Shown here one piece after another: positions 1 to 34,431 of a stretch of DNA of 64,000 nucleotides (within the stretch, counting starts at the first letter, position 1; the number at the start of each line of letters is the position of its first letter). The notes under the pieces were generated by a model. The model made no database searches. It had not been told where the DNA came from and saw only the letters and a list, made by a program, of their open reading frames with translations. The translations under genes were made by a program, and so were the position numbers. Where the stretch lies: positions 1,344,001 through 1,408,000 of the forward strand of contig CM000155.2 in assembly GCA_000004695.1 (NCBI GenBank), in the 5' to 3' direction. The stretch comes from Dictyostelium discoideum (lineage: Eukaryota).

Positions 1-837
1 CGTTTATCACAAACGTGATATTTAACTAATTCCAAGAACTTAGTATTCATTGGTGGTACATTATCCCAAAGTAGTTGATTACAAAGTTCGAAATAAGAGG
101 TGATATCATCGGTGATACTACCGACTTTTCTTTCTTTTTTTCTCTTTTCATCATCACGAAGAATATATTCAACCGATTCTTCTAATCTTCCATTTGCCAA
201 CGGTTCAATTGCAGATAGTTTACCCAACACTCTATTCAATTTCAACTCGAGTACGGTTTTCCTAGTTTCACCCTTTAGACAGGTTTCCCTCCAATATTGA
301 CCAAACGCATCAGAGATCTCTCGACGAGTATTTACAAAATCAACTATATAGCATGCATTCTTTCCCTTGGAAACTCTACTTAACCTACCAATAGTTTGAA
401 CGGCACTGGCACCCTTTAAAGCTCTATCGACATACATCACGGCCAATGATGGCTCGTCGAAACCTGATGATAGCTTATCGGCAACAATGATCAATTGCAC
501 TCTATGTTTCTTATCATTTCTCAAGATTTCCGAGATACCATTTCTCTTTGAAAAGTATTCTGCATAACTACCATTTATCTTTTCATCATATTCCGCTTTC
601 TCTTTTTTCTTTAAACTAAACTTTGCAAATGATGCTATAATATCAAATTTTTGATTCTTTGGTAATGATTTCACCAATGATTCCAATGTTTGTTTATATA
701 ATAAAATTTGTTCTCTACTATTTGTAACTAACATTGCTCTACAATTAAATTCATCATTATTAATTTGTTCTCTTAATTTTAAAAAATGTTTTATAATATA
801 TGATGACTTTTCTTGAATTATTTTCTTTTTTTTAATA

Positions 838-880
<43 letters not shown>

Positions 881-2442
881 AAAATAGAATTAGTATTTTT
901 TTATTTTTTTATTTATATTAATAATAATACATACTTTATCATTATTTGGATGTTTTAAAATATGATAAGATGATTTATTTTCATCATTAAAAAAGGTATC
1001 ACTTGTTTTATCATTTGAAACTTTGGTTAAAATTGAAACAGTTGTATAATGATCAATACAATTCATAACAATTTTATCTTGTAATGCTTTCTCTATTGAA
1101 TAAGTATGAAATGGTACTCTTAAATTACCTCTTGTATCACCAAATAATTCTAAAGCTTTTGGTTTTGGTGTACTTGTAAAACAAAAATATGTTATATTAT
1201 TCTTTTCTCTAGTTTCACCATTTAATATTGCTTTTATTTTTTTTTTTTTTTTAAATAAAATTAAATTATTAATTAGATTATTATAAATTATTAAAAATTA
1301 TTAAAAATTATATTATATTATATTATATATATATATTTACAACTAAAAGTATTTGTCATTGATCTAATATCATCAGAAATAATTGCAATTGATTTATATT
1401 TATTTGAAATATGATCAAATCCATGAGTATCAATAACTTTTGAAAACTTTTGCATTGTTGAGATTACAACTCTAGTTTTAGCTTTTGTTAAAATCTTTTC
1501 CAATAATGCAATTGTATTTGGATGTGAAATTGATGTTAAATCATTATCTTTTAAAAATTGAGTAATAATTGAACCAAGTTGATAATCTAAATGTCTTTTA
1601 TCATTAATCACTAGTATTAAATCATATTTCAATTTACCATCTTCTAATAATCTATATAAATTTGTAATTAATGATGCAATCGTATGACTTTTACCTGACC
1701 CTGCTGCATGTTGAATTAAATAATTTTTTGAATTTTTAACTGGTTTTATTACTTGACTATTATTATTTTGATTATTATTATTATTATTATTATTATTTTG
1801 ATTATTTTGATTATTATTGTTACTACCACTTGTTGAAGAATAATTACTATGATCAGAATTTGTTGATGACGGAGCAAATAATAAACCCATTGGTGATAAA
1901 GGTGTCGCTAAAGGTGTTGCTGGTGATAATGGTATTATCTTTTTTGAATCAATTTTAAATTGTTCCACAATATTTTGAATTATTTTTACACATGCATCTT
2001 TTTGATGAAATCTAGGGATAAGTCTTTTCCAACCTTCCATAACCATTTTATCTATTGCTATACTATCTACATTTTCTATATTTACAAATTTTACTCTACT
2101 ACTATTATTATTAGTATTACCGCTACTACCACTACCACTAATATTACTACTACCACTATTACTACTACTACTACTAAATACGCCTCTAGCAGTTGGTAAT
2201 GGGCTAGTTTCTTTTGGTGGTGGTGATTTCATTTCATCATCTATATTCTCTTCTTCATCCTCTAAATCATCGAAAAAGTCATCCCCATTGTCTGATCCAT
2301 CACTATCTTGTGAATCAAATTCTAACTCATGAGATGGTATCATCTCATCTTTACCTAAAAGTGATGATGTCCTTCTTCTATTTGTTTTTGGTGTACCTGT
2401 TGTAGTAGTTGTGGTTGTTGTTGTTGTCTTATTGCTATTACT

Positions 2443-2511
<69 letters not shown>

Positions 2512-3015
2512 ATTATTATTATTTGATGATGGTACATCAAAACCAATAGTTTTAGTTTTTGGTTGATTTTTAGGTGTAGGAATTGATGAAAAAGTATTAT
2601 TATTATTATTTTTTGAACCATATACTTCAGAAGCTGATTGAGGTGATGGCATTAAAAAACTATTATGTGAAGAGACAGGGGTATGAAATGAACCAGGTGG
2701 TGAAGGTCTAAGGAAAATAGATGATGATGGTTTTTGTTGGTTTCTATAGTTTGTTGGTGATGGTGATGTTGATGAAAAACTACTTGGTACACCAAATCCA
2801 CTATAATAACTATTTGGTGATTGTTTACTTAAAAATCCAGAGAAATTTGGTGATGTCGATGTTGAACTATCCGATGATGTTGACATCATTATATTTCTAC
2901 TACTACTACTAAATTGATGAGTAGTGCTATTACTACTCCCACCACCTCCACCACCACCACTATAATGAATTCTTGGTGATGACATTGAACTATTTGATGA
3001 ATATGATGCACCTAA

Positions 3016-3048
<33 letters not shown>

Positions 3049-3696
3049 GTTATTATTATTACTACCACTACTATTGCTATTGCTATTATTATTGGTAGTG
3101 GTTGGATTTGTTTTGGGTTGGTTAAATGAAGATGATAGTGGTATACCAACAGGTCTTAAGAAGCCACTATTTGTAGTTGTTATACTATTACGAGTATTAT
3201 TTGAAGCGTTACGTAGTAGATGTTGTTGTTGTTGTTGCATTCTAGATAGCATACCACCACCAAATGATGATGGGGCTGATGAAGGTTTAGTAAATCCTCC
3301 ATTATTTGGACTACTAGACATACTAACACTTGCATTTGAATTTTTTATACTTGTCGAAGAGGATGATGATATACTCGGGGTTGGTGTTGGACGTGCTGAT
3401 TGTTTAGAAATTAAACCCTTTTTAAATGAATTGTTTGCGCTATTTCCTGCACTATTGTTATTGCTATTGCTATTGCTATTATTGCCTGTACTACCAATAA
3501 TTACAGTGGTGGTTGTTGGTATTGGTATTGGGGTTGAAGTGGTTGGAGATGAAGTTGTAATTGTTGACTTTTGCTTCAATGATGAAGAAGAGGAAGAGGA
3601 AGAAGAGGAAGAAGTTGGTGATTGTTTTGAACTTGGTATATTTATTGCTGTAGATGGTGGCTTACCACCATTCTGTTTTTTATTAGATTCCATCAT
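1..3696 (-). CDS. SF2 helicase/ATPase with type I/III restriction-enzyme R-subunit-like (HsdR/Res-type) motor domain. N/S/T-rich low-complexity N-terminal half. 3'-partial, the C-terminus runs off the window start.
   Basis: Exon 1 is 3696..1341 (ORF 1318-3696) and carries Walker A 'HAAGSGKSHT'. A GTAAAT...AG intron spans 1340..1231. Exon 2 is 1230..935 and carries a motif-III-like 'FCFTSTPKP'. A GTATGT intron starts at 934. Exon 3, about 824..1, was translated by hand from the reverse complement and gives '...IIVADKLSSGFDEPSLAVMYVDRALKGASAVQTIGRLSRV...' (motifs V-VI, Q..GR..R), continuing in frame to position 1. The exon-3 acceptor is ambiguous between 826/825 and 808/807. Confidence 0.6.
2424..2510. 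repeat. (GTT)n / (AAC)n coding microsatellite. Gives a poly-Asn tract in the helicase N-terminus.
   Basis: Uninterrupted gtt trinucleotide run in the sequence. The minus-strand ORF shows a run of about 27 N here. Confidence 0.9.
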
Positions 3697-4679
3697 ATTT
3701 TTTTAACTAGTTCATATATATAATTTTCTGGCGCGTCTTTTTATTGTATTTTTTTTTAATATATATATTACTATTATAATTATTTTATATGTGTGAGCTT
3801 TATATTATTTATTTGTTGTTTTTTTTGTTTTTTATTGTTTTTTTTTGTTTTTTTTTTTATTGTTTTGTTTTGTTTTTTTTTTTTTTTTTTTGTTTTTATG
3901 TGTTGTTACAATTTTTTTTATTATGCACAAAAGAAATAAACCTTATTAAAAAAATGAAATTTAATAAAAAGAAAAAAGGAAAAAGAAAGATGAAAAAATA
4001 TATAAAGAAATGAAATTGTGCGAATGTGTTTGTACAAGTAATTGAAAAAAAAAAAACAAAAAAAAAAAAAAAAATTTAATTTAATTTTTCAAATTAAAAA
4101 AAAAAAATAAAAAAAAATAAAAAAAAATAAAAAAAAAATAAAAAATAAAAAAAAATAAAATTAAAAAAAGATATTTTTTAGTGAATGTGTAATGTGAAAA
4201 AAAAAAAAAATTATATTACTTTATTTATTTATTCATTTATTTATAATTATTATTATTATTTTTTTTAATAATTAAACATAATTATGTTCATATGTTCTTT
4301 TTATTTTTTTCATATTTTGGAAATCAAATCGTTGGGGTTATTGGGGAAATATTAAAAAATAATTTGATTTTTTTTTTTAATTTTTTTTAATTATTTTTTT
4401 TTTTCCTCAAATAATATCTTATCAAAAACGTGGATGTTTTTTATTTTCCTATTTCAAAATATTTTTTTTTAAATTTATTTTGAAAATTCAAGATATTTAT
4501 TATTTTTTTTTTTTTGTTGTTTTTTTTTTTTAAAGAAAAAAACATTTAATCTCGAGAAGGTTCTTTTTTTATTTTTTTTTAAAAAAAAATAAATATAAAA
4601 GGGTTTTTTTTTTATAATCATTATCTTCACAATCAAAATAAACAAACAAATAAACAAATAGATAAATAATAAAATAATA

Positions 4680-5786
4680 ATGCCACAAAAATTTTATTTA
4701 TTAATATTAACAGTTTTTTCAATATTATTAACAAAAATTAACTGTGAATTACAATTACCTTACTTTTATTCATTTGAAAGTACTGGAAATTTTCAAGTTA
4801 TTAATGTTGAAACTAATGAAGCCGTTTTAAATAGTACACTATCGATTGATTTACAGGTTTTATTAGTTTATGGGTCAACTATTTCCACAGTTTCAAATAA
4901 ACCAATTTTTAATTTATTCGTTTCAGAAATAAATAGTAGAGTTTTCTATACAATTGATTATGATTCAGATTCCAATCAATTTAGTAATAAAAGTGTACAA
5001 TTAACGTTACCAACTACTCTTGGTTTTGAATACGACCCTTCAACATTTTTCTACAACCCAGTTACAAATTCATTCATTTTACCTTGTCACATTGATGGTT
5101 TAACTCAAAATGTTTTATCCTTTATTGAATGGGATTTTAAAAATTCAAAAATGTAATTACACTTTATATTAATTTATAAATTTAATAATTATTTATTTTT
5201 TTTTTATTAATTTTTTATTAATTTTTTTATTTATTTATTTTTTTTTTTTTTTTTTAGAAATACTTATAAAAATGTAGAAAGTTTTAAATATATGACACTT
5301 CCAATATCAGCATATAATCCATATACTGATGAATTATTTACATTTTTAACAGGTCCAAATAATGCACCATATGTTCAAATTAATATGAATAATTCATTTT
5401 CAGTTGATAATGTAAAGGTTATTAAATTCCCAAGTAAGAGTGCAACATTACCAAATATTGGCAACATATTTATAAATACACAAGGTGGGTTAGTTGGTAC
5501 TGGCTATATTGAAGGAACATCGGAATTGTTTGTTTGTGAAATTGATTTCAAAACATTATCATGTTCAATCGAATATACAACTTTAATTTCATCATTTGAT
5601 AATAATTTCTCTGTAATTTATCCATCATCAGATTTATCTTATTTAATTATATTGGTTGGAAATGGTTTCAATTGTGATACTATTGAAATTAATTATTTAA
5701 ATTTATTTACATATAAAGTAGATTATACATTTAAAATTAATAATTTCTTTAAAAATCCTCAAGATAGTCCAGTACTTTTTTTCTAA
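4680..5786 (+). CDS. Secreted protein of unknown function (N-terminal signal peptide), two exons.
   Basis: ORFs 4680-5156 and 5292-5786 join in frame through a GTAATT...TTTTTAG intron at 5153..5257. The exon-1 phase-2 'at' plus 'a' at 5258 keeps the 5292 frame. The N-terminus 'MPQKFYLLILTVFSILLTKINC' is hydrophobic. Structure: join(4680..5152,5258..5786). Confidence 0.55.
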
Positions 5787-6473
5787 AGTTAGTAAAAAAA
5801 ATAATTTTTTCCAAAATAAAATTTATTTTAAATATTTCCAAAAAAAAAAAATTACAAAAACAAGATTTAATTTATTTTTTTATTAGGTTTATTTTTTTTT
5901 TATTCCCATTTTACTTTTTTAGAAGTTTTAAAAAAAAAACCAGAAAGAAAAAAGATTTTAAACCAAATTATTTTATGGTAGGGATCTTCACTGAATTTTT
6001 TTTTTTTTTTTGAAATTAAGCAAAATTTAACAAAATTTTATTATAATAAAAAGAAAAAAAAAAAAATTATAAATTATAATAATAAATAAACTAATTATGA
6101 TTTGGACTATTTCATATTTTACTTGGAAATTAAAAACAGAAATTATAAAGAAGTTGAAAAATAAACTTAACTGAAATTAAATAAATTATTTCAAAGAATG
6201 AGAAAATAAAAAATTTGAAATTTTGTTAAAAATAAAAAAATAAAAAAAAAAATATTTTGGAAAAAAAAAATATCTTAAAATTACGTATTATTAATCAAAA
6301 AAAAAAAAATTGTGGGTTTTTTTTTTTTTTTTTTTTTTTTTTTGTTTTTTAAACTAAAAATAAAAATAAAAAAAAAACAAAAAAAATAAAAAAAATTAAA
6401 AAAGATTTAAATAATTAATTTTTTTTTTTATATATATAAATTCATTATAGTTATCACAACCAAATTAAATAAT

Positions 6474-7510
6474 ATGAAATTTCATTATTCAATTTTTTTA
6501 TTTTATTTTTTATTTTTTTTTAAAATTATCAAATGTGTAGATGTGGAGTCATCCGATTGTATGTTATTAATTTAATATTTTTTTTAATACCATTATTGGA
6601 ATTTAATTTTAATTTATTTTTTAATTTATTTTTGAACCCTTTTTTTTTTTTTTTTTTTTTTTAAAAAGTAACTTGTTTAAATAATTTAGGGTTAAAAACA
6701 TTCGTAGATGAATTTATTTCTCCTGATATTCAATCAAAATTTTGCACATTATCATTCAACAATTGTTTTTCAAATGGTTCAATAAGTGATTTGGTTCTTC
6801 GTCAAAATAACACTGAACTTTTATCATGGAGTGATTTCAGTTGTTTTTCATCAATTAATACACTCAGATTATATAACTCCTATATAGAATCGGATTTTAT
6901 ATATAATCCAATTTCAACAATCAAACAATTGTAATATAAATTTTAATTTAATTATAAAAATTATAATTTATATTAACTATTACTTTTTATATTTTATTTT
7001 TATATATAGATATTTATATCCAAAATCTAATATTGATTCAATTTATCAAGTGGTTCCAAAATATGATGTATTAACATTAAGCAATTTAACAAATTCATAT
7101 GTTTTAAAAGCATCATATTTAAAAAATGTTAAATTTCTGTGAGTAGAAATTGTTTTTATTAGTTTTTTTTTTTTTTTTTTTTTCTGGAACCTAATTTTTT
7201 TTTTTTTTTTTTTTTTTTTTTAGTAATATATTTGGAGGTTTTATTATATTTGATACTGAAGGAGATCAAAGTAATAGTGAATTAGAATCTTTAAGCTTCA
7301 CTTCAGATTCACTTCCAATTTTAACAGGTTTTCCAAAATTAAAACAATTATCAATATACTCTGGCCAAAATTCAATTTTCAACGAATCTTCATTAGGAAA
7401 TTTGGTACCTCTAAATAAATTAACCTCTTTAACAATTGATATAAATACACCAGATGTAGATATATTTAGCCATATAATTTCAATATCTAATTCTAGTTTG
7501 TTAAATATGT

Positions 7511-7552
<42 letters not shown>

Positions 7553-10123
7553 TTATTCTAATTGTTTTTATTTTTTTATTTTTTTAAAAAATTAAAAAGC
7601 TATTTTGGAAGTGGCATTAAAATGGGACCAGCAAAACAAAAATATGATTTTTCAATTTTTGAAAATATGACTCAAATTTCATTATTTGGAGATAATAAGT
7701 ATTTCAATTTTGAAGGACAATTTCCATTCTCTTCTTTACCACCAAAATTGACATATCTTATATTTCCAAATGGTAATTTTTCATTCCCAGATATTAAATT
7801 TTTTGAAAATTTTACAAGTGTCGGGTTCAACTCTATTTCCAGGTCAAATGTTTATGGTACACTACCAAAGTATACACTATCAAAGAAAGTTTCATTTTCA
7901 ATGAGTAATAATAAATTAACAGGAACAATTGATAAAAGTTGGTGTAATATCAATTCAGATTTTTCAAATAATCTATTTAGTGGTGAACTTCCTGAATGTT
8001 TTTATTGTTTTTTAAATGATTCAAGTGTTTCAAAGTTTTTAAAAGGAAATAGTTTTACAAATTTTAATACAAATAATCAAGATTGTGGATATTGTAAGTA
8101 GTATTTTTGTTATTTTTTTTAAAAAAATTAAAAAAAAAAAAAAATTTAATTGGTTATTAATTAACAATAATTTTAAATTTTTTTTTAATAGCCCAAATTT
8201 CAATATATAGTATTAAATTTAGTGCTTTGGGGATATCATTTAATATTTATGGTAAAAATATGGGACATTATCAAAATATAATTGCAACTCCTCCTTTAAC
8301 TTTAAGTGATAATAATCTTGATGGTTCAATTTCAGGTTATTTGTCAACACCTGTTGGAAATTTAAAAACAGTTGAATTTAGATTAAAATCACCAGGAATA
8401 AACTTTACTATTGCTGTAAAACCTGAAAATCCTACAATAGATAGTATCACTCAAAATAACAATACATTTACTATTTATGGTACTTATTTCTCATATAATC
8501 AATCATCAATCAATGTTATTATTGGAAATAATATTTGTAATGTTTTCTCATCAACATTTTATCAAATTCAATGTGAAATTGGCTATCCTGTTGTTGATAA
8601 AGGTATTATCAATCTAAAGGTAACAGTCGAAGATAAATTTTCATCAAGTAAATCATTTGAAATAACTCAAACTAATCAACCATGTCATCCAAATGATTGT
8701 AATGGAAATGGTGTTTGTGATCATGTTTATGGTGTTTGTAAATGTAATAGTAGATGGGTTACAATTGGAAATCAAATTTGTTTAATTACAAATCATTTCA
8801 TTTCATCATCTACTCAAGTTGATTCAACAACAGGTGGTAATATAACGTTATATGGTTCCTTTGGACCTGATCATCTATCATACCAATTAATAATTGATGG
8901 TTTAAATTCAACAATCTTTTTTATTGATGATAATTCAATTCTAACATCAATAGAACCGGGTACAGGTGGAAAATTAATAACATTCATTCAAAACAGTATT
9001 ACATGGAGTGGTACAGTTTATCCATACATTATTAAATCTTTCAAATGTCCAAACGATTGTGGTGGAAATGCTCAAGGTAACTGTAATACATTAAATGGTC
9101 AATGTGATTGTTTAAAGGGATATACTGGATTCGATTGTAGTCCATTACCAATTGTTAAAACAAAAGATGAACCATCATCAACAACATCGGTTGCTTCATC
9201 AGGTTTAACAACAATCTCAAATGAACAAACTGGTTATCAACTTTCAATTAACTCTGTGGTTGAAATTGATTTTAATGGTAAAGAAATTCCAAATTCTTTA
9301 ATTAAACTTTCAGGTAATTGGAAATTGGAAAGTAATCAAAACTCAATTTCAATATTTAAACAACAAGTAGAAAATACTATATTTATTTTAACTATTGAAG
9401 AGATTGAAAATTCTGATAAACAATTCTCATTTGCTGGTAATAATTTCACAGTTTCTAAAGGTGGTATTAAAATTTCTTTCTCAATTTCAAATTGGAATTA
9501 TCAAAGTAATTTAAATACACTTAGAGTAGAAATGATATCAGATATTAAAATCGATGAAAATAAAGATATAAATAGCTGTAATGATGATAATAGTCAGCCA
9601 TCATTTGAATCATCATCAAATTCTCAAAGTGATACTGGTAATTTAAATTATCTTAAATTTTCAATTAATGGTAAAATACTTCAAGGTAGATTCCAAGATA
9701 AAATGCTATCCGATGGTAGACCAACTTCAACATTTTCAAAAGTATTATCTAAAACTAATAATATGGTAACTCTTGGTTTAGATTTACCACATTGTATTGA
9801 ATGTTTATTAGATCCTGATTTTTCAGTTTTGTGTATGTATTTTTTTTTAAAAAATATTATTATTAACTATAAAAATAAAATTATACTAATCTATTTTCAT
9901 TTATAAAATTTTAGTGAGCCCAGATTTTAAATCATCAGATTCTTGTAAATCAGATGATAAAAAACCATGGTTAATTCCTGTTGTAGTTGTCATACCAGTT
10001 GTTGTAGTTGCAACCATCATTACTGTTATTATTGTATTGGCAAAGAAAAATAGTGTTAAACTTAGAATTGGTTTGAGAAATATTTCAATGGGTTCAGTCA
10101 AAAAGGATCATTCAAGAAAATAG
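6474..10123 (+). CDS. Type I membrane protein with signal peptide, leucine-rich repeats, EGF-like/laminin-EGF Cys-rich modules and a C-terminal transmembrane helix (adhesion/receptor-like).
   Basis: Hand-spliced from seven exons: join(6474..6558,6690..6930,7010..7138,7224..7508,7600..8097,8211..9832,9915..10123). The N-terminus is MKFHYSIFLFYFLFFFKIIKC. LRR-like segments are present in exons 2-5, for example 'LTYLIFPNGNFSFPDIKFFENFTSVGFNSISRSNVYGTLP'. EGF-like motifs include 'CNGNGVCDHVYGVCKCNSRW' and 'CPNDCGGNAQGNCNTLNGQCDCLKGYTGFDC'. A transmembrane segment 'WLIPVVVVIPVVVVATIITVIIVLAKK' is followed by a short cytoplasmic tail. Most donors are GTATGT/GTAATA/GTGAGT/GTAGGT. The exon-5 donor had to be placed at a weak GTAGTA at 8098 to keep frame, so that junction is uncertain. 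Confidence 0.5.
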
Positions 10124-10214
10124 AACAGAATAAAAATAAAAATAAAAATTAAAATTAAAATAAAAATAAAAATTAAAAATAATTTTCGTTCGTTTTTTTT
10201 TTTTTTTTATGATT

Positions 10215-10247
<33 letters not shown>

Positions 10248-10448
10248 TTTCAATTTTGTTTTAAAATAGAGATTCATATATTTATATAACTTTTTAAAAA
10301 AAAAAGGGGAAGAAAAAATAAATTAAAAGTTGATTTAAATAAACCTTTACAAGGAACAGCAACAGTACAATCAAAAGAAAAAACTACATTAAAGGTAATT
10401 GATCCAATAAAGAATTTCCCAGAATTACAAAATAAACCAGAACTTGAA

Positions 10449-10870
10449 ATGGCAAAATTACTTCAAATGTCTGAAAAAGTTAATAAAGATGAATTAGAAC
10501 CAATTGAAAAATATAATATAGAAAATGGAAATAATGATGATGAAGATAATGAAGATGAAGATGATAAAATGGAAGATGAAGACGATGAAAATGATGAGAA
10601 TAAAAACAGTGAAAAGAAGATGTCACATAGAGAAAAGTAGATATTTATCAATTTTTTTTTTTTTTTTTAGAAGATTTTAACTTACTAATAAATAATAATA
10701 ATAATAATAGGTTTTTATTAAAAAGAAAATTAAAAAATGAAGTAGTAACATTAAAAGAACAACGTAAAAAATGTAAAAAGACAAACTTTGTTCAAAAGAA
10801 AGAGAAGAAATCACTTTCACAAGAAATTCATGAAAAAGTAAATGCAACCTTAAAAAAGAAAAAATTGTAA
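10449..10870 (+). CDS. Small protein of about 116 aa with an acidic D/E-rich N-half and a basic K-rich C-half. Function unknown.
   Basis: ORF 10449-10640 is joined by a 74-nt intron at 10637..10710 (donor GTAGAT, acceptor AATAATAG) to a second exon, 10711..10870, ending '...KVNATLKKKKL*'. The reading frame also stays open upstream of the ATG, so the 5' end is uncertain. Confidence 0.35.
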
Positions 10871-11056
10871 ATAAAAAAAATAAAAAGAAAATTTAGTAAT
10901 TCCATATGAAACTTAAAAAAGTTAAAAGATGATAGTTAGGACCTGAAACACTTTTTTTTTTTTTTTAAAAAAAATTTATAGAAAAGAGAAAACTTAAAAA
11001 ATACAAAAAGGATAAATTTAAATATACAATTATAATTTATTTAAGAGATCTACTTT

Positions 11057-11091
<35 letters not shown>

Positions 11092-11097
<6 letters not shown>

Positions 11098-16708: not shown

Positions 16709-17622
16709 TTAATTAAAATTATTTTTTACAGATGGAGATACACCACTTTCATATAAAGAAACGATATCAATTTCTTCATCTTCAGCGCTATGATGAGCTT
16801 TTGATGGTGGATCAACTGGTGGGAAGAAAGGGGAATTTGAAGGTAAATTTGGAGTGATTGGAGTATTTAAAGTGATTGGGGTTGAAGGAGTTGAACCATT
16901 GGTATGATCTACTGATAAAAGTAGTGAGGAAGATGATTGTTTTAAATTGGTTTGTTCGATGGATTTCTCTAAATCACCAATTTGAGAATCAAAAGGTGCC
17001 AATAATTGTAGGGTACTAGTTAATAATTTTTCAGCGATTGGTAATAAATGTGAAAATCTTTTTTCGTTATATTCAAAACAATTTGCAACCATTAATTTAA
17101 TGGCATCAATGAATTGATTTTTAGATTTATATTCCCAATGTCTATTTCTATCTCTCATTGTTGTTAAATCGATTGGATTCTTGATGACCTTATGATAATC
17201 TGGTGCTAATTTTGGTGTAACTTTATGTCTAAATGCAATGAATTCATCATTGGTTCTAAGTTTATCCAATATTCTTTCAAAGATATTTGAAAGTTCAACA
17301 TCTGCACCACTACCATCCTTTCTAACTCTATTTCTACGTGATGATTTATCGCTACCATCAAGTGTTGTTGAACTAAGTGATGGTGATTCACTATTTGATT
17401 GATCCAATGTTCTTTTCTTTCTATTTGAACCACTTGATGATGCTGATAATGGTGTATTTAAAACTGATTGATCTTCAGTTCTATTATTACCACCATTAGT
17501 ATTATTACTATTACCACTATTACTACCATTATATCTAATTATAATACCGGATTGTGATAATGTTGGTGATTGATTTGTACTATTTGAAAGATTATTTGTA
17601 TTATTATTTTCATTATTATTAA

Positions 17623-17692
<70 letters not shown>

Positions 17693-20600
17693 ATTATTAT
17701 TAATATTATTAATATTATTATTATTATTATTATTAATATTATTAATATTATTGTTATTGTTATTATTATTATTAATATTATTATTATTATTGTTATTATT
17801 ATTATTATTGTTATTATTATTACTATTATTATTATTATTATGATTATTATTACTATTGTTATTGTTATTATTACTACTACTGCCACCATTATGATTTGAA
17901 TCTCTATTACTACTTGAATGATGTGATGAACTATGACTATCAGAACTACTACCTGTACTATTTCTATGATGAGAATCTCTATGATCACGACTACTACTAC
18001 TACTACCACTCGAACTATTTCTTGATCTTTCACTTCTATGCTCACGATGTTCTCTGTCACTTCTATGTTCTCTATCACCGCTTCTGTGTTCACGATGTTC
18101 TCTATCACTTCTGTGCTCTCTATCACCACTTCTATGTTCACTACTTCTATGTTCTCTGTCGCTTCTATGTTCTTTATCACCACTTCTATGTTCACTACTT
18201 CTATGTTCACTACTTCTATGTTCACTACTTCTATGTTCACTGCTTCTATGTTCTCTGTCGCCTCTATCACTGCTTCTATGCTCTCTATCGCCACTTCTAT
18301 GTTCACTACTTCTATGATGTGATGAGTGTTCACCACTTCTATGTTCACTACTTCTATGTTCACTACCTCTATGTTCGCTACTTCTATGTTCACTACTTCT
18401 ATGCTCACCACTTCTATGTTCACTACTTCTATGTTCTCTATCGCTACTTCTTGGATGGCCACTGCTTGATGAGGATGATGATGATGAAGATGAAGATTGG
18501 CCAATTCTAATTTTTGTACTTGAACTACTATTTGAATCAGAATTAGCTTGTTGATTTGGCATTACAATACTAATTCTTGTTTGATCTCTATCAGTATTAC
18601 TATTGTTATTACTACCACTACTACCAATACCACTACTTGAACTACGATGTGGTGGTATTGGTTTATTACTACTACTTGTATTTAAAGAGAAATTATTATT
18701 ATTATTATTATTATTATAATTATTATTATTTATATTTGATACTGGAATATTACCAGCACTAATATTAATCATATTTGAAGAACCAATTGTAGCACCAATA
18801 CTACTATTACTTGAATTCATATTGAATGAATCTTCTCTTTGATCATTCTTTTTTAATCTTCTTAATCTTTCTTGAATTCTTCTTCTTTGTTTTTTAGTTT
18901 CTTCATCCTCTTCATTTTGTTTTCCAAATTTCTTTCTATCTTGAAGGAATTGATCATGTTTCTTCTTTTGATAATCTTGAACTACCTTTGGATCACGAAT
19001 AATTTCAATTCTCTTAAATAAACTTCCATCTGGTTTTTGAAATAATGTAGTTCTCTTTACAAATACTCTATCACCTTGAGTAAGATCATCTTCTTCTGCC
19101 TTTGCTTTTGCTTTAGCTTTAGCTTCTTCTGCTTTTGCTTTAATCTCTTCCTCTTCTGCTTTTGCCTTGGCTTTAGCTTTAGATTCTTCATCTTTATTCT
19201 TTGTACCCATTAGTTTATTATATTCCTCTTCTTCATTATCTTCTTCTTCATCTGATTCATCACGAGAGAATAAACTTCTACTACGTTTACCAGTTGATTT
19301 ACTTGATGATTTATTATTATTATTATTTGATTGATTTTGATTTTGATTTTGATTTTGATTTTGATTTTGACTTTGATTACTATCACCAAATAAACTATCT
19401 TCAAGATCTTTTAATAAATCAGCATCTAAATCTTCATCATATAAATCATCACCTTTACCAGCGATTGCTTTAATTTGATTATCAAATACCAATTGACATT
19501 GTTCTTTATATTGTAAATTTTGATGATCTAAACTATATCTTGAACCTCTTGCAAATTTAGTCATTGCAGCATTACTATTTGAAGCCAATGCAGCCTCACT
19601 GGATTTCTTACGAACCAAATCAATTCTTTGCCAACGAGCCAATTTATTAATGGTTTCTTCATCTACACCCAATTCTAATAAAACTGTTTTAGAAGCTGAT
19701 AAAGAAAGTTTTCTTAAATCTGCATCTGTACCAGTGACTTGATTCTTTTGAAGAGCCAATTTAATTGCTTTTTGTTTTTGATTTACAACTTTTTGAGGCA
19801 TTTTCAAGTAAGAGTATTCATCTTCTCTACCGGTTGGATCATCACTAATGATTTGTAATCTACCTTTACCTTGCATAGCACTAAGGAAACTACCAGTTAA
19901 ATTCCAAGGTGTAATTGAGAGTTCATCCTCAACTGGTTTTATAGATTTCTTTATTGGATCCTCATCGTCAAGATTACCAAGAATCGTTGGAATTGTACCT
20001 GGTGCTGTGAAATGAATGATACCATTATCCTGAAGTCTTTGAAGACCAATGAGCATACTCTCGAATGAAACCACTGCCTCTGGTGTTACCAACTTTTGAA
20101 ACTCCTCTTCGGTAGGCAATGTAAAGTTATCTTTTACAGTCCACCAACCACTATCATCCCCACCACGTTGAAAATCTGCACAATCCTTTAAACGTTTTCT
20201 AATGGAAGTTTCAGATTGTGATGGAAAGGCAGAGCAGATATCAGTGATCTTTAAACGACGTTGTGGGTTACTCTTTTTCAAGAATTGTCTATAGATGTAT
20301 GCTTGAAGTCTACTCTTTAAAAACATATTGGCATTTCTAGAGTTTGGTGCAGGTACTTCAACCTCTGGTAAGATTTGACCAGCCGCATAGATTGGACCAA
20401 CATCACGAATATACCAACGTTTACCATCTCTAGATTTAACTAACAGGAAATCGGTATTGGCTGAATTATGTTTATGAATGGGTACTTTAAATAAATTATT
20501 TACAACGGATTGAATGGTTTGACCAGGATTGATGTCACCTAAAAATGGTGATTCTTCATTATTATCCAACATTACCAATTCACCATCTTCAAAATTTAAA

Positions 20601-21592
20601 TCCTTTGGTCCAGTATCATGAGTATTCTTTTTCTTATAATAATTTCTAATTCTTAAACCCATACCAACATTTGAAACTAATGGTGGATGTTGTTCTGTAT
20701 ATTCAATTAAAACTAAACGACCATCACGTGCTGATAAATCCGATTTATGTAATGATTTCTTTGATGATGAAGATGATGATGATGAAGACGACGACATCAT
20801 ACCACCATTAATACTACCTCTCATATTATGACCACCCATTATACTATTTGTACTACTATTTAAAAGTAAATTATTTGAACTTGAACTTAAATCACCACTT
20901 AAACTACCCTCTTTATTATAGATTATAATTCTAAATGGTACATTACTTGGGAATAGAATACGTGGACGATGTGCATAAATTAAATCTTCTTTGGTAAGAT
21001 GAGTTTTAACCAATGATAATTTAATACCAGGTAAAGAATGTTGAATTACGACTTTAGTTGAACCATTTGGTGGACGTGGTGGTGGTTTTCTAACTGGTCT
21101 ATAGAATTTATCATTTGAAAGATTGAATTTATCAATTTCTCTTTGAGATTGTTCACGTTCTTCACGTTCTTTTCTCTCATCTTCTTCTTTATCTTTTTGT
21201 AATTGTTCTTCGAATGACATAGTTTGACCATTGGCAGCTCTTGCAGCTGCTTGTGCTCTTTCCAATGCAGCTGCTTGTGCTGCTTGTGCTGCTTCCAATG
21301 CCAATTTCTTTTTAGATTTCTTTTTAACTGGTGCTTGTTGATCACCATTTGAACCTGATTCACCATTATTATGTTCTTTCTTTTCAATATGTTCTTCAAA
21401 ATACATTTCTCTATCATTTAAATCTAAAATTAACATTGAAACTTGTTGTATTTTCTCTGGTACCATTGATTCATCCCATATTATATTATCAATCCAATCA
21501 CCATTTTCTAATTCTTGATTCGATATTGGAAAAAGTGACCATTTATCAATATTACTTTTCATAATTTCATCAATTTCTTTATTATTATTTTG

Positions 21593-21630
<38 letters not shown>

Positions 21631-21979
21631 TATTATTACTATTATTATTATTATTATTGGTATTATTATTATTACCATTATTATTGGTTAAATTATTATT
21701 ATTTGTCGTACTATTTTTTTTATTATTTACAATTGTTTGAATATGTTGTTCATTTTGCGCTTTATCTTTATCTTTTTCTTTTTCTTTATCTTTTTCTTGT
21801 GATAATGGTTGTTGTAATAAATTTTGTGAATCTGTGTCCATTATTTCTTCTTTTTCACTAATATGATCTAATCCAAATAATTTACTACTATTATTTATAT
21901 TATTATTGTTATTTTTATTTTTATTTTTATTATTTCGTTGAGTTGTCGTAGATGTTGAAGTTGATGATAAAGTTGTTGC

Positions 21980-22033
<54 letters not shown>

Positions 22034-23727
22034 AGTTGTTGATGATGATGAAGTTTGTTTTGAATTTTTATTTAAATTTGGTGTTAAATCATTAATTTCA
22101 ACTGGCATTGTTATTGCCTCTTTAATTATAATATTTTGTTGTTGATTATCTGATGATAAATAAAATTGATTGAAATGATCAGACTTTTTAAATTTAATTA
22201 AACTTTCCTCATCCCAAATGATATTATCCTCCCAATTAACTTGTTGTAATGAATGATAATTTGAATCGGGTACCATATAAAACATTGTCATTATTTCTTC
22301 ATCCTCAGTCTCCCTAAGTGGTTCAGGTACATATTCTTCATCTTCTTCTGCTGCTGCTTGATATAATTGCATCGATGTTAATGTTGGTGTTGTCGTATTT
22401 GATGATGTTAATGTATCCTCTTCACCACCACCACCTGTTGAGCTAGTGATACCAGCATTTGATTTTAATAATTGTTTCGTTATACTATCAATTTCTGTTA
22501 TTGGTTTCTTTATAATTGAAGGTGGTGGTTGTTTTTTCGATGGTTGATTCCACAGTAAGAGTTCATCAGTTTCAATTGAATCATCATTTAATGTTTGTGG
22601 TGTTGAGAATCTAGTTTTACGTGATTTCTTTCTTGTTGGTTTATCTGGAAATTTGGGTGCAAATAATTGAGAAAACTTTAAAATGAAACCTTCCGATGAT
22701 TTACCACTAACAAATACTTTAAACTCTTGATCCTCTGGTGTAAACATTTCAGGTGTTTCAAGTATTGATTTTACAACTTCATATGAACCTGCTTTCATTG
22801 TTACCTTTTTCTTTGGTTTCTTTTCTTTATGACGACGACGATGACTACCACCACCGCCACCACCACCACCACCACCACCATCTGAATCTGAATCTGATCT
22901 TGAAGAAGATGATGAAATTGATGATCTTGAAGAAATTGAAGATCCTGATGATCTTGATGAATCAGACATTGAGTCGGATTCAATATCTGATGCTGACCTT
23001 GACATCGATGGTGATCTTGATGATGATGCTGATGATGATGCTGATGATGATGATAATGATGATGCTGATGAAATATCATCATCATCTTCATCTTCACTAC
23101 GAGTTGATTTTTGCTGTTGTTGTTCTTCTTCCTCATCAAAATCGAAATCATCAACTGATGGTTTCTTTTTAATTTGTAATGGTTGTTTTGAACCAACTTG
23201 TTTTCTTTGTTTTCTACGTTCCTTTTTCGATAATTGTCTTTGTTGTTGTTCTAAAAGTTTTAAACGTTGTTGTTCTTCACGCTCTTTATGTTGTTGTTGT
23301 AATCTTGCAATTGCAGCATTTGCAAGTTTATCCGCATTCAATTTATTGATTTCATTCTCTGTGGATTGAATTTCTTCAGCAACTTCATCAATATCCTCAT
23401 AATCTAATGCATTTTTATCGGGTACAATAACTGAATCTGTAACTGCATTCTTATCATCCTCATCAATACCAATTGTTTTTTTAAATGATATATGTTGACT
23501 ACTTTTTGCAAATAATTCTAAATCTTTTTTTAAATCCTATAATTAATAAATAATAATAATAATAATAATAATGTTAATATATATATATAAATATATATTA
23601 ATAAAAAAAAACATATTCATACTTTAAAAACTTGATCATTCTCTTCAACATCCAATTCACCAGACTCTTTAACATTACCAAAGAGGAAACCTGTTAAATT
23701 CCCTTTCTTTTCTTTATCTTTAGCCAT
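16709..23727 (-). CDS. taf1: TAF1 (TFIID subunit 1): N-terminal TAND-like segment, DUF3591/HAT core, C-terminal bromodomain, plus long poly-Asn and a histidine-rich pentapeptide repeat.
   Basis: Structure: join(23727..23623,23537..16709). Exon 1 gives 'MAKDKEKKGNLTGFLFGNVKESGELDVEENDQVFK'. An 85-nt GTATGA...TTATAG intron follows. Exon 2 is continuous with ORF 16709-23341. The DUF3591 stretch reads '...WWTVKDNFTLPTEEEFQKLVTPEAVVSFESMLIGLQRLQDNGIIHF...LSITPWNLTGSFLSAMQGKGRLQI'. The bromodomain reads 'FRHKVTPKLAPDYHKVIKNPIDLTTMRDRNRHWEYKSKNQFIDAIKLMVANCFEYN'. Confidence 0.8.
17600..17870. repeat. (ATT)n / (AAT)n coding microsatellite. Gives a poly-Asn tract of more than 80 N in TAF1.
   Basis: Long att/aat run in the sequence. 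The ORF shows NNNN with scattered I/Y/H. Confidence 0.9.
18040..18440. repeat. Tandem 15-bp coding repeat inside TAF1 that encodes about 30 copies of S-E-H-R-S/G ('EHRSSEHRSGEHRSSEHR...').
   Basis: The unit ttcactacttctatg / ttctctatcaccact repeats on the plus strand. The minus-strand translation shows the HRS[SG]E repeat. Alternative-frame ORFs 17539-18504(-) and 17896-18510(+) are artefacts of this repeat. Confidence 0.85.
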
Positions 23728-30084: not shown

Positions 30085-30157
30085 GCTCGATTAGCTCAGT
30101 CGGCAGAGCGTGGTGCTAATAACGCCACGGTCGCAGGTTCGATCCCTGCATCGAGCA
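30085..30157 (+). tRNA. tRNA-Ile, anticodon AAU (DNA AAT), 73 nt, no intron.
   Basis: Cloverleaf read by hand:
- acceptor GCTCGAT / ATCGAGC, discriminator A
- D-stem GCTC/GAGC
- anticodon stem TGGTG/CGCCA with loop C-T-AAT-A-A
- T-arm GCAGG TTCGATC CCTGC, with internal B box GGTTCGATCCC. Confidence 0.9.
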
Positions 30158-30346: not shown

Positions 30347-31555
30347 ATGGCTGATGATCACTCAACTGAATTACAGTTAAATCATACAGATAACAACACA
30401 ACCAATACAAATAATACCTTCACAACCTCAACAACAAAAAACAAAAGTGTAAAAATCGACACACCTAAAAAACAAACCCCAACAAACCAACTTTTACTAA
30501 ACAAAGGACTTGATAATCAATTAGATATCATTGCACCTCCATCAATCACAAGACCACTCTCTTTCTTAGAAAAAAACAATAACACCATCAACATTAAGTG
30601 TTACTTTAATCAACCACTCATCCGTGAAGAATTAACCTCAAAAGATGACACAAGAATTCAACAAATTCACAAAAACATTCACAAACTCTTCGAAGATATA
30701 CTGTCGCCATCAGCATTCAAAATAATTGGTGCAACTGCCTTCGTAAATTGCAACGTTGATAAATTAACTTCAATAATCAACCTTCAAAACCAACTTGCAC
30801 TAAATATCGACAAACTCAACTATAGATTCGATATATCATCAAATGATTATGCAATCATTAAAACATTCATTAAAACGTACTCACCCAAACATGCAAACGA
30901 TGCAATTACAAACAACCTCACTAAATTCACCAGTTGTACATCAATTGAATCATTTACTGTCACATACTCATATGCTGTTGCGTTTAAAAGCTACATTATA
31001 ACATATCATCTAATTGATCACACACACAACATTGTTGATCAAAAGATCGAACAACCATCTGGTATCACAAGATATATCAAAGCTGCAACACGTAGTGTCA
31101 CTAAACACAAAATTCAACATGCAAAAAATGCAGATATGGCAACAACTATAAAAAATGCCATCACAAACCCAAACATGAACAAAAACAATCAACCACCAAA
31201 AAACAACATTAACACCCCACCAATCAACGAAATTGCAAATTCCAATCGCAATAATAACTCACTTCAAAATAGTGGTTCAAAAGCTATACTAAATGAATCA
31301 CTTGATATTAACAATCAATCCCAAAACAATAATGAAATTTCACACAAAAGTGATTCTTCAAATAATAATAACGGGAAAAACTCATTATCAATGAGCAATC
31401 CAACCGATCCAACAATTGTACCACAAAAACCTCTACAATCTCAACCAAACAAACCAAGTGCACCAACTCCAAATACAATAAATACAAGAAGAAGCAGCAA
31501 TGCCCTGACTACACAACCAGTCAATACTGGTGCTGCCAAACCTAGTAAGGTATGA
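30347..31555 (+). CDS. TRE3 ORF1 protein (402 aa).
   Basis: ORF-track entry. It precedes and overlaps ORF2 by 4 nt, the typical TRE/L1-like arrangement. Confidence 0.7.
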   Translation: MADDHSTELQLNHTDNNTTNTNNTFTTSTTKNKSVKIDTPKKQTPTNQLLLNKGLDNQLDIIAPPSITRPLSFLEKNNNTINIKCYFNQPLIREELTSKDDTRIQQIHKNIHKLFEDILSPSAFKIIGATAFVNCNVDKLTSIINLQNQLALNIDKLNYRFDISSNDYAIIKTFIKTYSPKHANDAITNNLTKFTSCTSIESFTVTYSYAVAFKSYIITYHLIDHTHNIVDQKIEQPSGITRYIKAATRSVTKHKIQHAKNADMATTIKNAITNPNMNKNNQPPKNNINTPPINEIANSNRNNNSLQNSGSKAILNESLDINNQSQNNNEISHKSDSSNNNNGKNSLSMSNPTDPTIVPQKPLQSQPNKPSAPTPNTINTRRSSNALTTQPVNTGAAKPSKV

Positions 31556-34288
31556 GCTCAAAAATCAACTTTATAACATGGAATTGTAGAGGATTCACTG
31601 AAAACCCAAACAATCAACACAATTCCTACCAAAAAGCTGTTGACACACTACAACTACTTATTTCAAAACTTCCACCTCGTCCAACAATCTCAATACTCAC
31701 TGAACTCAATTCATCACCATTACAACTTAAACATGATTTTCCCGATCACATCATCTCTGTCACCAAACGAGGAAATGGTGTAATCATCATTAACCATAAC
31801 CCAAACACACTCAAACTCAAACACATATCAACAATTGATGGTAGAGCTATTTTAGCAGACGTTATATTTCCAAATCAATTACCAATTGGTATTCTTGGAA
31901 TTTACGCACCAGCATCAAATAATACCATCAAAAAGAATTCATATGCAACTTCACTACAAACACTTCTCCACAACCACTCAACAAACCCAATACCAAACCA
32001 ATCCCAACATGTATCTATTATCGCAGGAGATTTCAACTGTATCCACAACGACAATTCACTATTAGACGATATTATCCAATCCTACACATACCAACACCAT
32101 CTAATTGATCAAGGTGAATTTAAAAACACTCCAACTCATACACATGGCAACAGATTAGATAGAATATATACTCAATACAATAGAATAGACCCTGAAAATA
32201 TATATACACAAGTCCACCAAATTCCATCTTCATTATCAGATCATAATCCAATATCAACAACAATTTCTTCACCTTTTCAAATAAATAAACATAAGAAAAG
32301 ATGGATATTATCACCTGGTACTGCAAATGACCATGAAGCAATCAATATTATCAATCATTTAATAACTAATCACAATAACACATCAATCAATCAATTTACA
32401 AACTGGTCAAAAGTAAAATCAAAAATTATTAAAACTCTAAAAAACTATCAATATAACAAAGACAAACAAACTCAACGTGCAAAACAAATACTATTAGAAA
32501 AAGCAGCAAAATTCAAACATCTTGAAGAACAATGCATCGCTGAATACAATATTATATGTAACAAAAACAAATTACATCAAAACCACACAAACATATTAAA
32601 AAAACATATAAATTTAGAAATACCTAGCAAGTATCTATCAGCAATACTAAACAAAAGATCAAAAGATGCAAAAATTGAATCAATCCAATATGGTAACATC
32701 ATTACATCCGACCCCGACCAAATTGAAAATGCGTTTGTTGAATTCTACACAAATCTATATAGCTTACAAATATGTTGTCCAATTACTCACCAGCTCATGC
32801 TAAACACATGGCCCATCATAAAAAATGAATATTGGAATGGTTTAGACTCACCATTTATACAAGATGAAGTTGAAGCTGCAATTAAAACCTGTAACCCCAA
32901 CAAATCACCCGGTCCAGATGGCGTTACAAATGCATTCTACATTAATCATCTAAACCAAGTTAAACCAATTCTCACTACATTATTCAACGATATACTAGAA
33001 AATCCTCACCACATCACAACAGAATTCACAGAAGGTCTTATACACACAATATACAAGAAAGGCAACCCCTTACTCATATCAAATCGTCGTCCCATTACAC
33101 TTCTAAACACTGATTACAAGATCCTCTCCAAAGTAATCAATGCACGTCTTCTGAGAATACTTCCTTTCATCATCAACAACAACCAAACTGGTTTCGTACC
33201 CCACAGATTCATCATAGACAACATCATCAACATCAATGAATTAATCAACTACCTCAAATCTAAAAACCTCCCTGGTATCATCACACTATTTGACTTCTTT
33301 AAAGCATTTGACTCTATCTCTCACGATAGTATTAAAAGAACATTAATTCATATTGGTATACCAATAAAATTAATAAATTTAATCCACAAGCTATTATCTG
33401 ACTCACAAGCAAAAATTTCAATTAATGGTAAAACGACCAGAAAATTCGATATTAAAAGAGGTGTAAAACAAGGTGACCCAATCTCAGCCACTTTATTTGT
33501 AATTGTAATTGAAATATTAGCAAGAACAATAAATGCAGACAATTCAATAATTGGATTACCAATTTCACCCAATCCACAAATTAAAATCAAATTTACCCAA
33601 TTTGCAGACGACTCTACAACATACAACATCAACTACGAACAACAACAACAATCAATCAAACATTTCGATAATTTCTGCGCTTCAACATCATCATCTTTAA
33701 ATTTTGACAAAAGTGCAATAATAGAAATCAACCCCCACAAAATCACTGATAAACACATAATAAACAACATTCCACAATCAAAAAGAATTCCAATAACCAA
33801 AAAAGATCAATCAGAAAGAGTTCTTGGCTATTTCTTTAATCATAATGGTTTACATAGGAAATTACCAGAAACAATGAAAACACTGATTAAATCATTAGTG
33901 CTATGGAAAACTAGTGGCACAACATTAAAAACAAAAACAACCATCATAAACACCTACTCACTATCACCAATAACATATTTATCATACCTTGAAGAATTTA
34001 CAAAAGATGAAGAAATTCAAATTAATAAATTAATCTCATGGTTTATGAATTCTCCCGCAAATTCTGAATCACCAACTCTCGATACCAATTCCATTGAAAA
34101 CAACACATCAACCATCCATTCACGTGCAAAAATACCTTTGATGTGTTATGATAGATCATTAAAACCATTAAAAGAAGGAGGTTGGGGTATGTGGAATATC
34201 CAATTACGACAAGTTGCTCAAAAGATTTGGATATACAACAGATTTTTACAAATGCATAAATCTGCAAACAATTCAATATACATGATAA
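31552..34288 (+). CDS. TRE3 ORF2 (APE endonuclease + reverse transcriptase). 3'-partial, truncated by the N gap.
   Basis: 957-aa ORF running into NNN. EN motifs sit at the N-terminus. The RT region reads 'SNRRPITLLNTDYKILSKVINARL...' and 'KFTQFADDSTTYN'. Confidence 0.75.
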
Positions 34289-34388
34289 NNNNNNNNNNNN
34301 NNNNNNNNNNNNNNNNNNNNNNNNNNNNNNNNNNNNNNNNNNNNNNNNNNNNNNNNNNNNNNNNNNNNNNNNNNNNNNNNNNNNNNNN
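34289..34388. other. Assembly gap, 100 N.
   Basis: Run of n characters. It falls inside repeated-element DNA. Confidence 1.
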
Positions 34389-34431
34389 TAATTTTTTTTT
34401 TTTTTCATTTTTTTTTTCTAATTAATTTTTA

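Follow-up and report, generated by a model that had tools for sequence, protein, structure and literature searches.

A eukaryotic family with the motor of type I restriction HsdR subunits and a Dictyostelium discoideum member with a degenerate motif II

Type I restriction enzymes are generally considered to be confined to prokaryotes. For the R subunit (HsdR) of the enzyme EcoR124I, the C-terminal helical domain has been proposed to contact the methyltransferase (PMC5248579). ATPases of restriction-modification systems have repeatedly been recruited to chromatin roles in eukaryotes, as in the SWI2/SNF2 proteins Strawberry Notch and HARP and in MORC (PMC3417536). We have analyzed a stretch of 64,000 nucleotides (nt) of the Dictyostelium discoideum genome (GenBank assembly GCA_000004695.1, contig CM000155.2, positions 1,344,001 to 1,408,000), hereafter called the window. 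At its beginning lies part of a gene for a protein with an HsdR-type motor and no nuclease. An initial annotation, made from the letters of the sequence, had described this gene as a helicase resembling the R subunits of type I or type III restriction enzymes and had proposed either an old horizontal acquisition or a rarely described eukaryotic subfamily. The results fit this proposal: the window protein falls in a monophyletic, nuclease-less eukaryotic clade, and this family is very probably derived from HsdR. We found no description of a eukaryotic HsdR-derived family, or of an architecture that joins HsdR to the Surp domain, in the literature, of which the full-text coverage was incomplete, so that absence here is not proof. 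A eukaryotic clade that keeps the HsdR motor alone would be a further, apparently undescribed, defence ATPase turned nuclear factor.

The gene is encoded on the minus strand, with its ATG start codon at 3696 and a frame that is still open at window base 1. The coordinates of its exons and introns, given below, are those best supported in an exhaustive, frame-keeping search of GT..AG pairs.

1..3696, minus strand: partial gene for an HsdR-type motor, without nuclease; three exons, 1158 codons in the window, C-terminus beyond the window
1341..3696, minus strand: exon 1 (amino acids 1-785 plus 1 nt); low-complexity N-terminus, Q motif, Walker A, motifs Ia, Ib and II
1231..1340, minus strand: intron 1, GTAAAT...AAAAG, 110 nt, 97.3% A+T
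935..1230, minus strand: exon 2 (amino acids 786-884); motif III and the last part of RecA lobe 1
825..934, minus strand: intron 2, GTATGT...AAAAG, 110 nt, 95.5% A+T
1..824, minus strand: exon 3 (amino acids 885-1158); RecA lobe 2 with motifs IV-VI, and the beginning of the helical region

The AT-rich spliceosomal introns that had been described thus number two, each of 110 nt, in a gene whose exons have 68-77% A+T. The alignment of the spliced protein, which runs unbroken against orthologues from two other species (P0121 and P0122, described below), gives independent confirmation of both splice junctions. Junction 1 ('...NTFS/SILNGETRE', the slash marking the splice site) aligns with 'NIHSILTGETRQ' of an orthologue and junction 2 ('NNDK/KIIQEKSSYIIKHF') with 'QNDKKIIQEKSSYIIKHF'. 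An alternative acceptor for intron 2 at 806, which would give a protein shorter by 6 codons, was disfavoured, since the orthologues retain 'KIIQEK' and thereby point to the acceptor at 824. Intron 2 contains a run of 37 A at window positions 841-877. In exon 1, 22 consecutive Asn are encoded by a (GTT)n repeat of 66 nt, as read on the plus strand (2446-2511).

Profile libraries place the motor with type I R subunits. In Pfam the window protein matches PF18766, the type I R N-lobe that carries the Pfam name 'SWI2_SNF2', with an E value of 2e-18, and PF22679 (T1R_D3-like) with 5e-13. The weaker Pfam matches are to ResIII, a generic N-lobe domain (3.5e-8, 34 bits), and to DEAD (3.5e-6, 27.3 bits against a cut-off of 26); neither Helicase_C (PF00271) nor SNF2-rel_dom (PF00176) was matched in the same scan. 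The NCBIfam model hsdR (TIGR00348) matches at 3.6e-40 over profile positions 265-671 only, with a score of 138.1 bits that lies under the curated cut-off of 284.55. Five PADLOC models match, all of them REase_I (2.8e-28, profile positions 281-721 of 1029), and the best sequence match in PDB is EcoR124I HsdR. In a search of 5.8 billion proteins, the 120 matches listed are 26-34% identical to the window protein and have the domain series HSDR_N, PF18766 and T1R_D3, apart from four without HSDR_N. PF18766 is present in all 120 of these type I R-type matches, and nearly all the named proteins among them are type I restriction R subunits. Word-index protein searches returned bacterial-type R subunits and metagenomic or Logan fragments only, and the dictyostelid orthologues were not among their matches. 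The product of the exon 1 ORF had no exact match in public assemblies. On this evidence from NCBIfam, PADLOC and PDB the type I half of the initial assignment stands and the type III half falls away: PADLOC and NCBIfam give type I models only, and the one restriction-type match of another kind is to the generic ResIII. As judged from these profiles, the motor of the window protein is of type I (HsdR) and not of type III, in which the Res subunit has a nuclease at its C-terminus and works with Mod.

The two RecA-like lobes of HsdR (EcoR124I, PDB 2W00) both match the window protein, and the fold of an orthologue model agrees. The alignment with bacterial relatives corresponds block by block, from the Q motif through motifs I, Ia, Ib, II, III, IV, V and VI; the type I-specific motifs in common with HsdR are 'PRFHQ' (the Q motif), 'LIQHxxGSGKS', 'FxFTxTPKxKxLExFG', 'PFHxYS', 'KxQTGFDEP' and 'AVQTxxRLxR'. 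The closest bacterial sequences are R subunits of about 1000 amino acids with 'IIDEAHSSQSG' and 'QTLSRLNR'. Unlike HsdR, the window gene has spliceosomal introns, a low-complexity N-terminus of 534 amino acids, a low-complexity insert that separates the Q motif from Walker A, and a degenerate motif II. For the structural comparison the motor of the closest orthologue was modelled with AlphaFold from a 46-sequence alignment (predicted local distance difference test, pLDDT, 81; predicted template modelling score, pTM, 0.76). The best 15 PDB fold matches of this model are all EcoR124I HsdR, with E values from 2.6e-18 to 1.4e-14, and the next are FANCM, RadD and eIF4A, at or above 1.5e-11. The weak DEAD match just above its cut-off might suggest an ordinary eukaryotic DEAD/DEAH-box or SNF2 helicase, but the type I R models, which are the top matches, are stronger by many orders of magnitude, Helicase_C and SNF2-rel_dom gave no match and motif II is degenerate. 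A bacterial contaminant, which the initial annotation had already dismissed, is contradicted by the introns, the Dictyostelium-type composition, the eukaryotic flanking genes and the presence of orthologues in dictyostelid genomes. We give these two explanations together a negligible probability.

Much of HsdR is not found in the window protein. The 611 N-terminal amino acids have no Pfam match, and in particular none to the nuclease domain HSDR_N (PF04313). A hidden Markov model (HMM) of the nuclease domain, built from 80 bacterial HsdR N-terminal domains, scored bacterial controls at 1e-55 to 1e-97 and gave zero matches in the window protein and in the eukaryotic clade members. At the other end, a 299-position profile of the bacterial HsdR C-terminus matched amino acids 1036-1128 of the window protein at profile positions 2-88 only. 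All eukaryotic relatives, including those of full length, likewise match 30-90 positions of this profile. Among the nine Pfam-scanned open reading frames (ORFs) of the 24 listed in the window, there is no N6-methyltransferase (hsdM) and no S subunit (hsdS). The motor and a short adjoining piece are thus the sole part of HsdR that has been kept, and most of the docking domain is undetectable with these profiles. The window protein is not an HsdR in the strict sense, because it has no nuclease, a dock that is mostly undetectable, no linkage to M or S genes, a score under the family cut-off and a non-canonical motif II.

Relatives were collected by an exhaustive HMMER scan of 1.84 billion representative proteins with exon 3 as the query. 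The closest are two dictyostelid orthologues, from Polysphondylium violaceum (P0121, KAF2069682, 1632 amino acids, 73% identity over exon 3) and Tieghemostelium lacteum (P0122, KYQ93880, 1487 amino acids, 69% identity over exon 3). At 35-45% identity follow proteins of Mastigella, Pelomyxa, Mastigamoeba, Entamoeba marina, Thecamoeba, Pyxidicula and Arcella, several environmental sequences, and a second dictyostelid paralogue group in Tieghemostelium, Cavenderia, Polysphondylium, Heterostelium and Synstelium. The clade accordingly spans at least four amoebozoan lineages (Dictyostelia, Archamoebae, Arcellinida and Thecamoeba), unplaced contigs and one probable giant-virus contig. A neighbour-joining tree was calculated for 133 motor domains from 443 columns, with 100 bootstraps. 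In it, 19 eukaryotic sequences form a clade apart from all bacterial R subunits in 100 of 100 replicates, and the window protein forms a trio with its two orthologues with the same support. Clade members have derived characters in common. They read 'DEAHRSHG' where bacteria have 'DEAHSSQSG', and they are without the insert of 25-45 amino acids that bacterial sequences carry between motifs II and III, which is absent from the window protein as well. In the databases the two orthologues are named 'hypothetical protein' only, and other members also 'helicase domain-containing protein' or 'putative type iii restriction res subunit'. Two environmental members lie on eukaryote-like contigs, one with genes for a mitochondrial carrier and cytochrome b5 and the other with Band_7 and PH/WD genes. 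A protein of 523 amino acids from the locust Schistocerca gregaria (P0136, XP_049848085), named 'type I restriction enyme HindI endonuclease subunit-like', has the clade signatures DEAHR and QTIGRLSR; it could come from a protist that contaminated the insect assembly, or have been acquired by transfer.

The sequences that had been quoted for Walker A, motif II, motif III and the motif V-VI block were all located, on the minus strand. The features of the window protein, in the order of its reading frame, are as follows.

2095..3696, minus strand: N-terminal low-complexity region, 534 amino acids, 52% S+N+T, no detectable domain
2527..2565, minus strand: short conserved motif 'QPKTKTIGFDVPS' within the low-complexity region, from comparison of three orthologues
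2230..2331, minus strand: acidic stretch 'HELEFDSQDSDGSD...DEEENIDDE', its position conserved in the orthologues
1993..2094, minus strand: conserved pre-Q segment and Q motif 'IAIDKMVMEGWKRLIPRFHQKDA', Q invariant in the alignment
1753..1926, minus strand: low-complexity insert of 58 amino acids from the Q motif to Walker A, one also in both orthologues
1681..1707, minus strand: motif I / Walker A 'AAGSGKSHT', amino acids 664-672, intact
1579..1614, minus strand: motif Ia 'LVINDKRHLDYQ', with Lys here and Arg in 46 of 46 aligned sequences
1360..1386, minus strand: degenerate motif II 'AIISDDIRS', amino acids 771-779, for which the family has 'ISDEAHRSHGKSM'
1139..1186, minus strand: motif III 'FCFTSTPKPKALELFG' ('FCFTSTPKPK'), amino acids 801-816, from the alignment
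450..491, minus strand: motif V 'IIVADKLSSGFDEP' ('SSGFDEP'), family 'QTGFDEP', with Q to S and T to S here
375..404, minus strand: motif VI 'AVQTIGRLSR', Gln and both Arg intact
3..344, minus strand: post-motor region, its beginning resembling the bacterial HsdR C-terminal region, then eukaryote-specific sequence

The low-complexity region in front of the ATPase, which had been noticed as rich in N, S and T, is borne out with the length and composition listed. Within it 'PKTKTIGF', and 'VP' one residue beyond, are identical across the three orthologues. In the orthologue model the loop equivalent to the insert between the Q motif and Walker A has a pLDDT below 50. An initial MAFFT placement of the Q-motif segment on the bacterial nuclease domain was rejected, since it was caused by the low-complexity insert; the true counterpart of this segment is the Q motif 'FPRFHQ' of the bacterial proteins.

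Motif II is the most altered part of the motor. It had been recognized as non-canonical, and it is in fact more deviant than first described. In the aligned reading 'SDDI-----RSM', Glu is replaced by Asp and Ala by Ile, and a deletion of 5 residues removes the His and the following R-S-H-G. Of the 46 aligned eukaryotic and bacterial sequences, 45-46 retain the E, A and H of DEAH. The degeneration is not a trait of the family as a whole: it is specific to the lineage, because 19 of 21 clade members keep 'DEAHRS(H/Y)G', the exceptions being the window protein and a Mastigamoeba protein. The lesion is derived in the lineage of the window protein. The two dictyostelid orthologues have the same short N-terminal motifs and low-complexity insert as the window protein; unlike it, they retain the canonical 'ISDEAHRSHGKSM', 'DR' in motif Ia and 'QTGFD' in motif V. 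A frameshift, mis-splicing or a hidden exon was considered as the source of the odd motif and rejected, since the other two frames stop at once, intron 1 is 97% A+T and non-coding, and the deletions are in frame.

The changes extend beyond motif II. When the window protein was added to the 46-sequence alignment, it was found to be changed at 8 of the 64 columns that are conserved at 90% or more, compared to 1-2 in the two orthologues. These 8 changes are Arg to Lys in motif Ia, the E, A, H and S of motif II, Gln-Thr to Ser-Ser in motif V, and Leu to Ile in motif VI. In a relative-rate test with T. lacteum as the outgroup, the window protein has 50 unique changes and the P. violaceum protein 23 (chi-square 9.99). 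The Mastigamoeba balamuthi exception (P0129, 1634 amino acids) reads 'DDADF' at motif II, has altered motifs III and V and is changed at 21 of the 64 columns. The N-terminus of this protein, about 640 amino acids rich in Cys, looks secreted or EGF-like and may be a gene-model fusion.

What such changes would do to the motor can be judged from both sides. Walker A, the Q motif, motif III, the 'GFDEP' core of motif V and the Gln and two Arg of motif VI are intact, the ORF is open over at least 1158 codons and lobe 2 is 73% identical to that of the P. violaceum orthologue. All of this would suit a fully active translocase in which Asp takes over from the catalytic Glu, a shorter motif II loop does no harm and function is as in the orthologues. 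However, the residues lost from DEAH are those that almost every aligned sequence retains, otherwise invariant positions of motif Ia (R to K) and motif V (QT to SS) are changed as well, and the rate of change is significantly higher. Davies et al. (1998, as cited in PMC4231737) reportedly found that both ATPase and restriction by EcoKI HsdR suffer from a substitution in any one of its seven DEAD-box motifs, and by analogy single changes in these motifs may be harmful here too. We regard a fully active motor as unlikely, at perhaps one chance in a few, and an impaired ATPase in the window copy as somewhat more probable than not. Most likely, ATP binding has been kept and hydrolysis, with its coupling, would be lost or strongly reduced.

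The same degenerate motif, the rate of about twice that of the sister orthologue, and the existence of dictyostelid paralogues with an intact DEAH (P0124, P0127 and P0128) that could compensate would also be expected of a decaying gene, an incipient pseudogene without function. We hold this to be very improbable, because the reading frame is uninterrupted, both motif II deletions preserve it, identity to the orthologue in lobe 2 reaches 73% and the N-terminal motifs are conserved. The 3.5 kb of coding sequence are free of stops and frameshifts, in a genome whose random ORFs are short. Its splice sites are intact, and the N-terminal motifs in question are short ones within low-complexity sequence.

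Clues to a cellular role come from the domains that are fused to the motor in the clade. In both dictyostelid orthologues the motor is followed by a conserved 'L(D/E)FA(R/K)E(I/M)W' motif, a Surp domain and armadillo (ARM) repeats. The Surp match is above the Pfam cut-off in the two orthologues (27 and 30.5 bits) and also in P0144, an unplaced member. A profile of the C-terminal block of the orthologues matches designed armadillo proteins at 5e-71 and importin-alpha at 3e-18, and the ARM block is found in Archamoebae as well. Another member (P0196, eukprot g5822.t1, 963 amino acids) has the motor followed by TFIIS N-terminal (Med26) and TFIIS central domains, and in P0157 (L003:6001-8229) an N-terminal SAM domain precedes the motor. 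According to published descriptions, Surp domains occur only in proteins related to splicing and bind helices of the SF1/SF3A3 type (PMC9514218, PMC4666396). The fusions with Surp and TFIIS domains suggest a place in the co-transcriptional machinery of the nucleus, in splicing or RNA polymerase II complexes, and a role in nuclear RNA processing or transcription is a possibility that we advance tentatively, at somewhat less than even chances. The C-termini of five members (P0121, P0122, P0271, P0139 and P0129) have '(Q/R)F(Q/T)P(S/R/K)' followed by a basic cluster resembling a nuclear localization signal (KRIKS, KRIRS, KRKRG or KRPKK), common to the dictyostelid and archamoebal members.

The unplaced member with Surp, P0144 (L001:4635-7136, contig 1-11350), has an HsdR-type motor and lies on a gene-dense, intronless metagenomic contig of 29% GC, next to ankyrin/F-box, ankyrin/RING, T5orf172/MUG113, Methyltransf_21 and kinase genes. 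Its gene content makes it probable that this contig belongs to a giant virus of amoebae, and such a homologue raises the question of the direction of transfer. The probable viral copy, the SAM fusion in one member and the origin of the family in a restriction enzyme could all be read as signs of a conflict or defence system, anti-viral or anti-transposon, that is still in operation. Decay of the motor would then be arms-race turnover, and both the independent decay of motif II in Mastigamoeba (DDADF, 21 of 64 columns) and the accelerated branch of the window protein would fall into place. However, no nuclease or other toxic effector domain was detected in the 18 clade proteins scanned (17 relatives and the window protein), the Surp and TFIIS fusions suggest core nuclear machinery, and the scanned orthologues have the same Surp and ARM layout. 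A continuing defence function therefore seems to us improbable, more so than the active motor discussed above.

We consider a domesticated nuclear translocase or scaffold, with its ATPase weakened or lost in the window species, the most likely explanation of these observations. Its ancestor would have been acquired once from bacteria, possibly along with giant-virus traffic, and a defence nuclease would have become an ATP-dependent translocase or remodeller of nucleic acid in the nucleus. The ancestral activity may have been ATP-driven tracking on duplex nucleic acid, as in HsdR (PMC5248579). The Surp, ARM and TFIIS_N/M modules would bring the motor to its substrate in place of the methyltransferase and specificity core, and in the window species the protein may act mainly as an ATP-binding scaffold or clamp. 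Taken as a whole (an HsdR-derived motor, a nuclear role through the fused modules and a copy in the window with impaired ATPase), this explanation is in our judgement somewhat better than an even bet. A bolder version is distinctly less likely and is offered as speculation: the bacterial motor would have been captured a single time by an early amoebozoan, or exchanged with giant viruses that infect amoebae, would have lost nuclease and methyltransferase dock and been rewired by way of the Surp, armadillo and TFIIS modules. It would thereby have founded a class of nuclear translocases, so far undescribed, that act on co-transcriptional splicing or on RNA polymerase II complexes, and in the window species would have become a pseudo-motor that binds ATP without hydrolysing it.

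Several points weigh against the domesticated translocase or scaffold. The Surp and ARM modules of the window gene would lie beyond the window and are predicted from the two orthologues, and the argument for splicing or transcription is drawn entirely from domain fusions. Asp in place of the catalytic Glu could retain some ATPase activity. The intact frame and the identity of 69-73% in lobe 2 show continued selection, so that the motor could still work. The lesion is placed by comparison with orthologues outside Dictyostelium. Finally, the tree is a neighbour-joining and not a maximum likelihood tree, on 443 columns, and the bacterial sister group of the clade has a bootstrap of 40 or lower.

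The domesticated translocase or scaffold has parallels among described proteins. Strawberry Notch, SWI2/SNF2 proteins of the HARP/SMARCAL1 type and MORC follow the same theme, a DNA-handling ATPase of a prokaryotic conflict system that has left its restriction setting and is fused to eukaryotic interaction domains (PMC3417536). In contrast to these, the window family belongs to the HsdR branch and not to SNF2 or GHKL, it is apparently confined to Amoebozoa and unplaced lineages, and its partners are Surp, ARM and TFIIS domains and not chromatin readers; the word 'HsdR' is absent from PMC3417536. The clade amounts to a natural experiment on what an HsdR motor is capable of when nuclease and specificity core are gone, and the broken motif II in the genetically tractable Dictyostelium makes it possible to ask directly if the cellular role depends on ATP hydrolysis. 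A second parallel is offered by pseudo-helicases and clamps of helicase superfamily 2 (SF2), which, as proposed here for the window protein, keep nucleotide-binding elements while hydrolysis is disabled or suppressed. The textbook ATP-dependent clamp is eIF4AIII, locked in the exon-junction complex, and structures of eIF4AIII in that complex are among the weaker fold matches of the orthologue model. However, hydrolysis in eIF4AIII is blocked by partner proteins and not by loss of motif II, and its homology to the window protein is that of the general SF2 fold only.

The Pfam-scanned neighbours in the window are a ComC-like EGF protein, a GH38 alpha-mannosidase, a TAF1 (DUF3591 and bromodomain), a retrotransposon, an Rsm22 and a Ulp1 protease. 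Minor observations on these surroundings are listed here.

16709..23341, minus strand: TAF1-like ORF, 2210 amino acids, with long imperfect 'EHRSSEHRSG/DREHRS' repeats ahead of the bromodomain
30085..30157, plus strand: tRNA-Ile(AAT) gene, with a B-box-like 'GGTTCGATTCC' about 30 nt downstream
30347..31555, plus strand: ORF1 of a retrotransposon without long terminal repeats (non-LTR), which follows the tRNA-Ile gene and extends up to 34425
31552..34425, plus strand: ORF2 of this element, with endonuclease/exonuclease/phosphatase and reverse transcriptase domains and an assembly gap of 100 N at 34289-34388

In its placement behind a tRNA gene this element is reminiscent of the TRE elements of Dictyostelium, which target tRNA genes.

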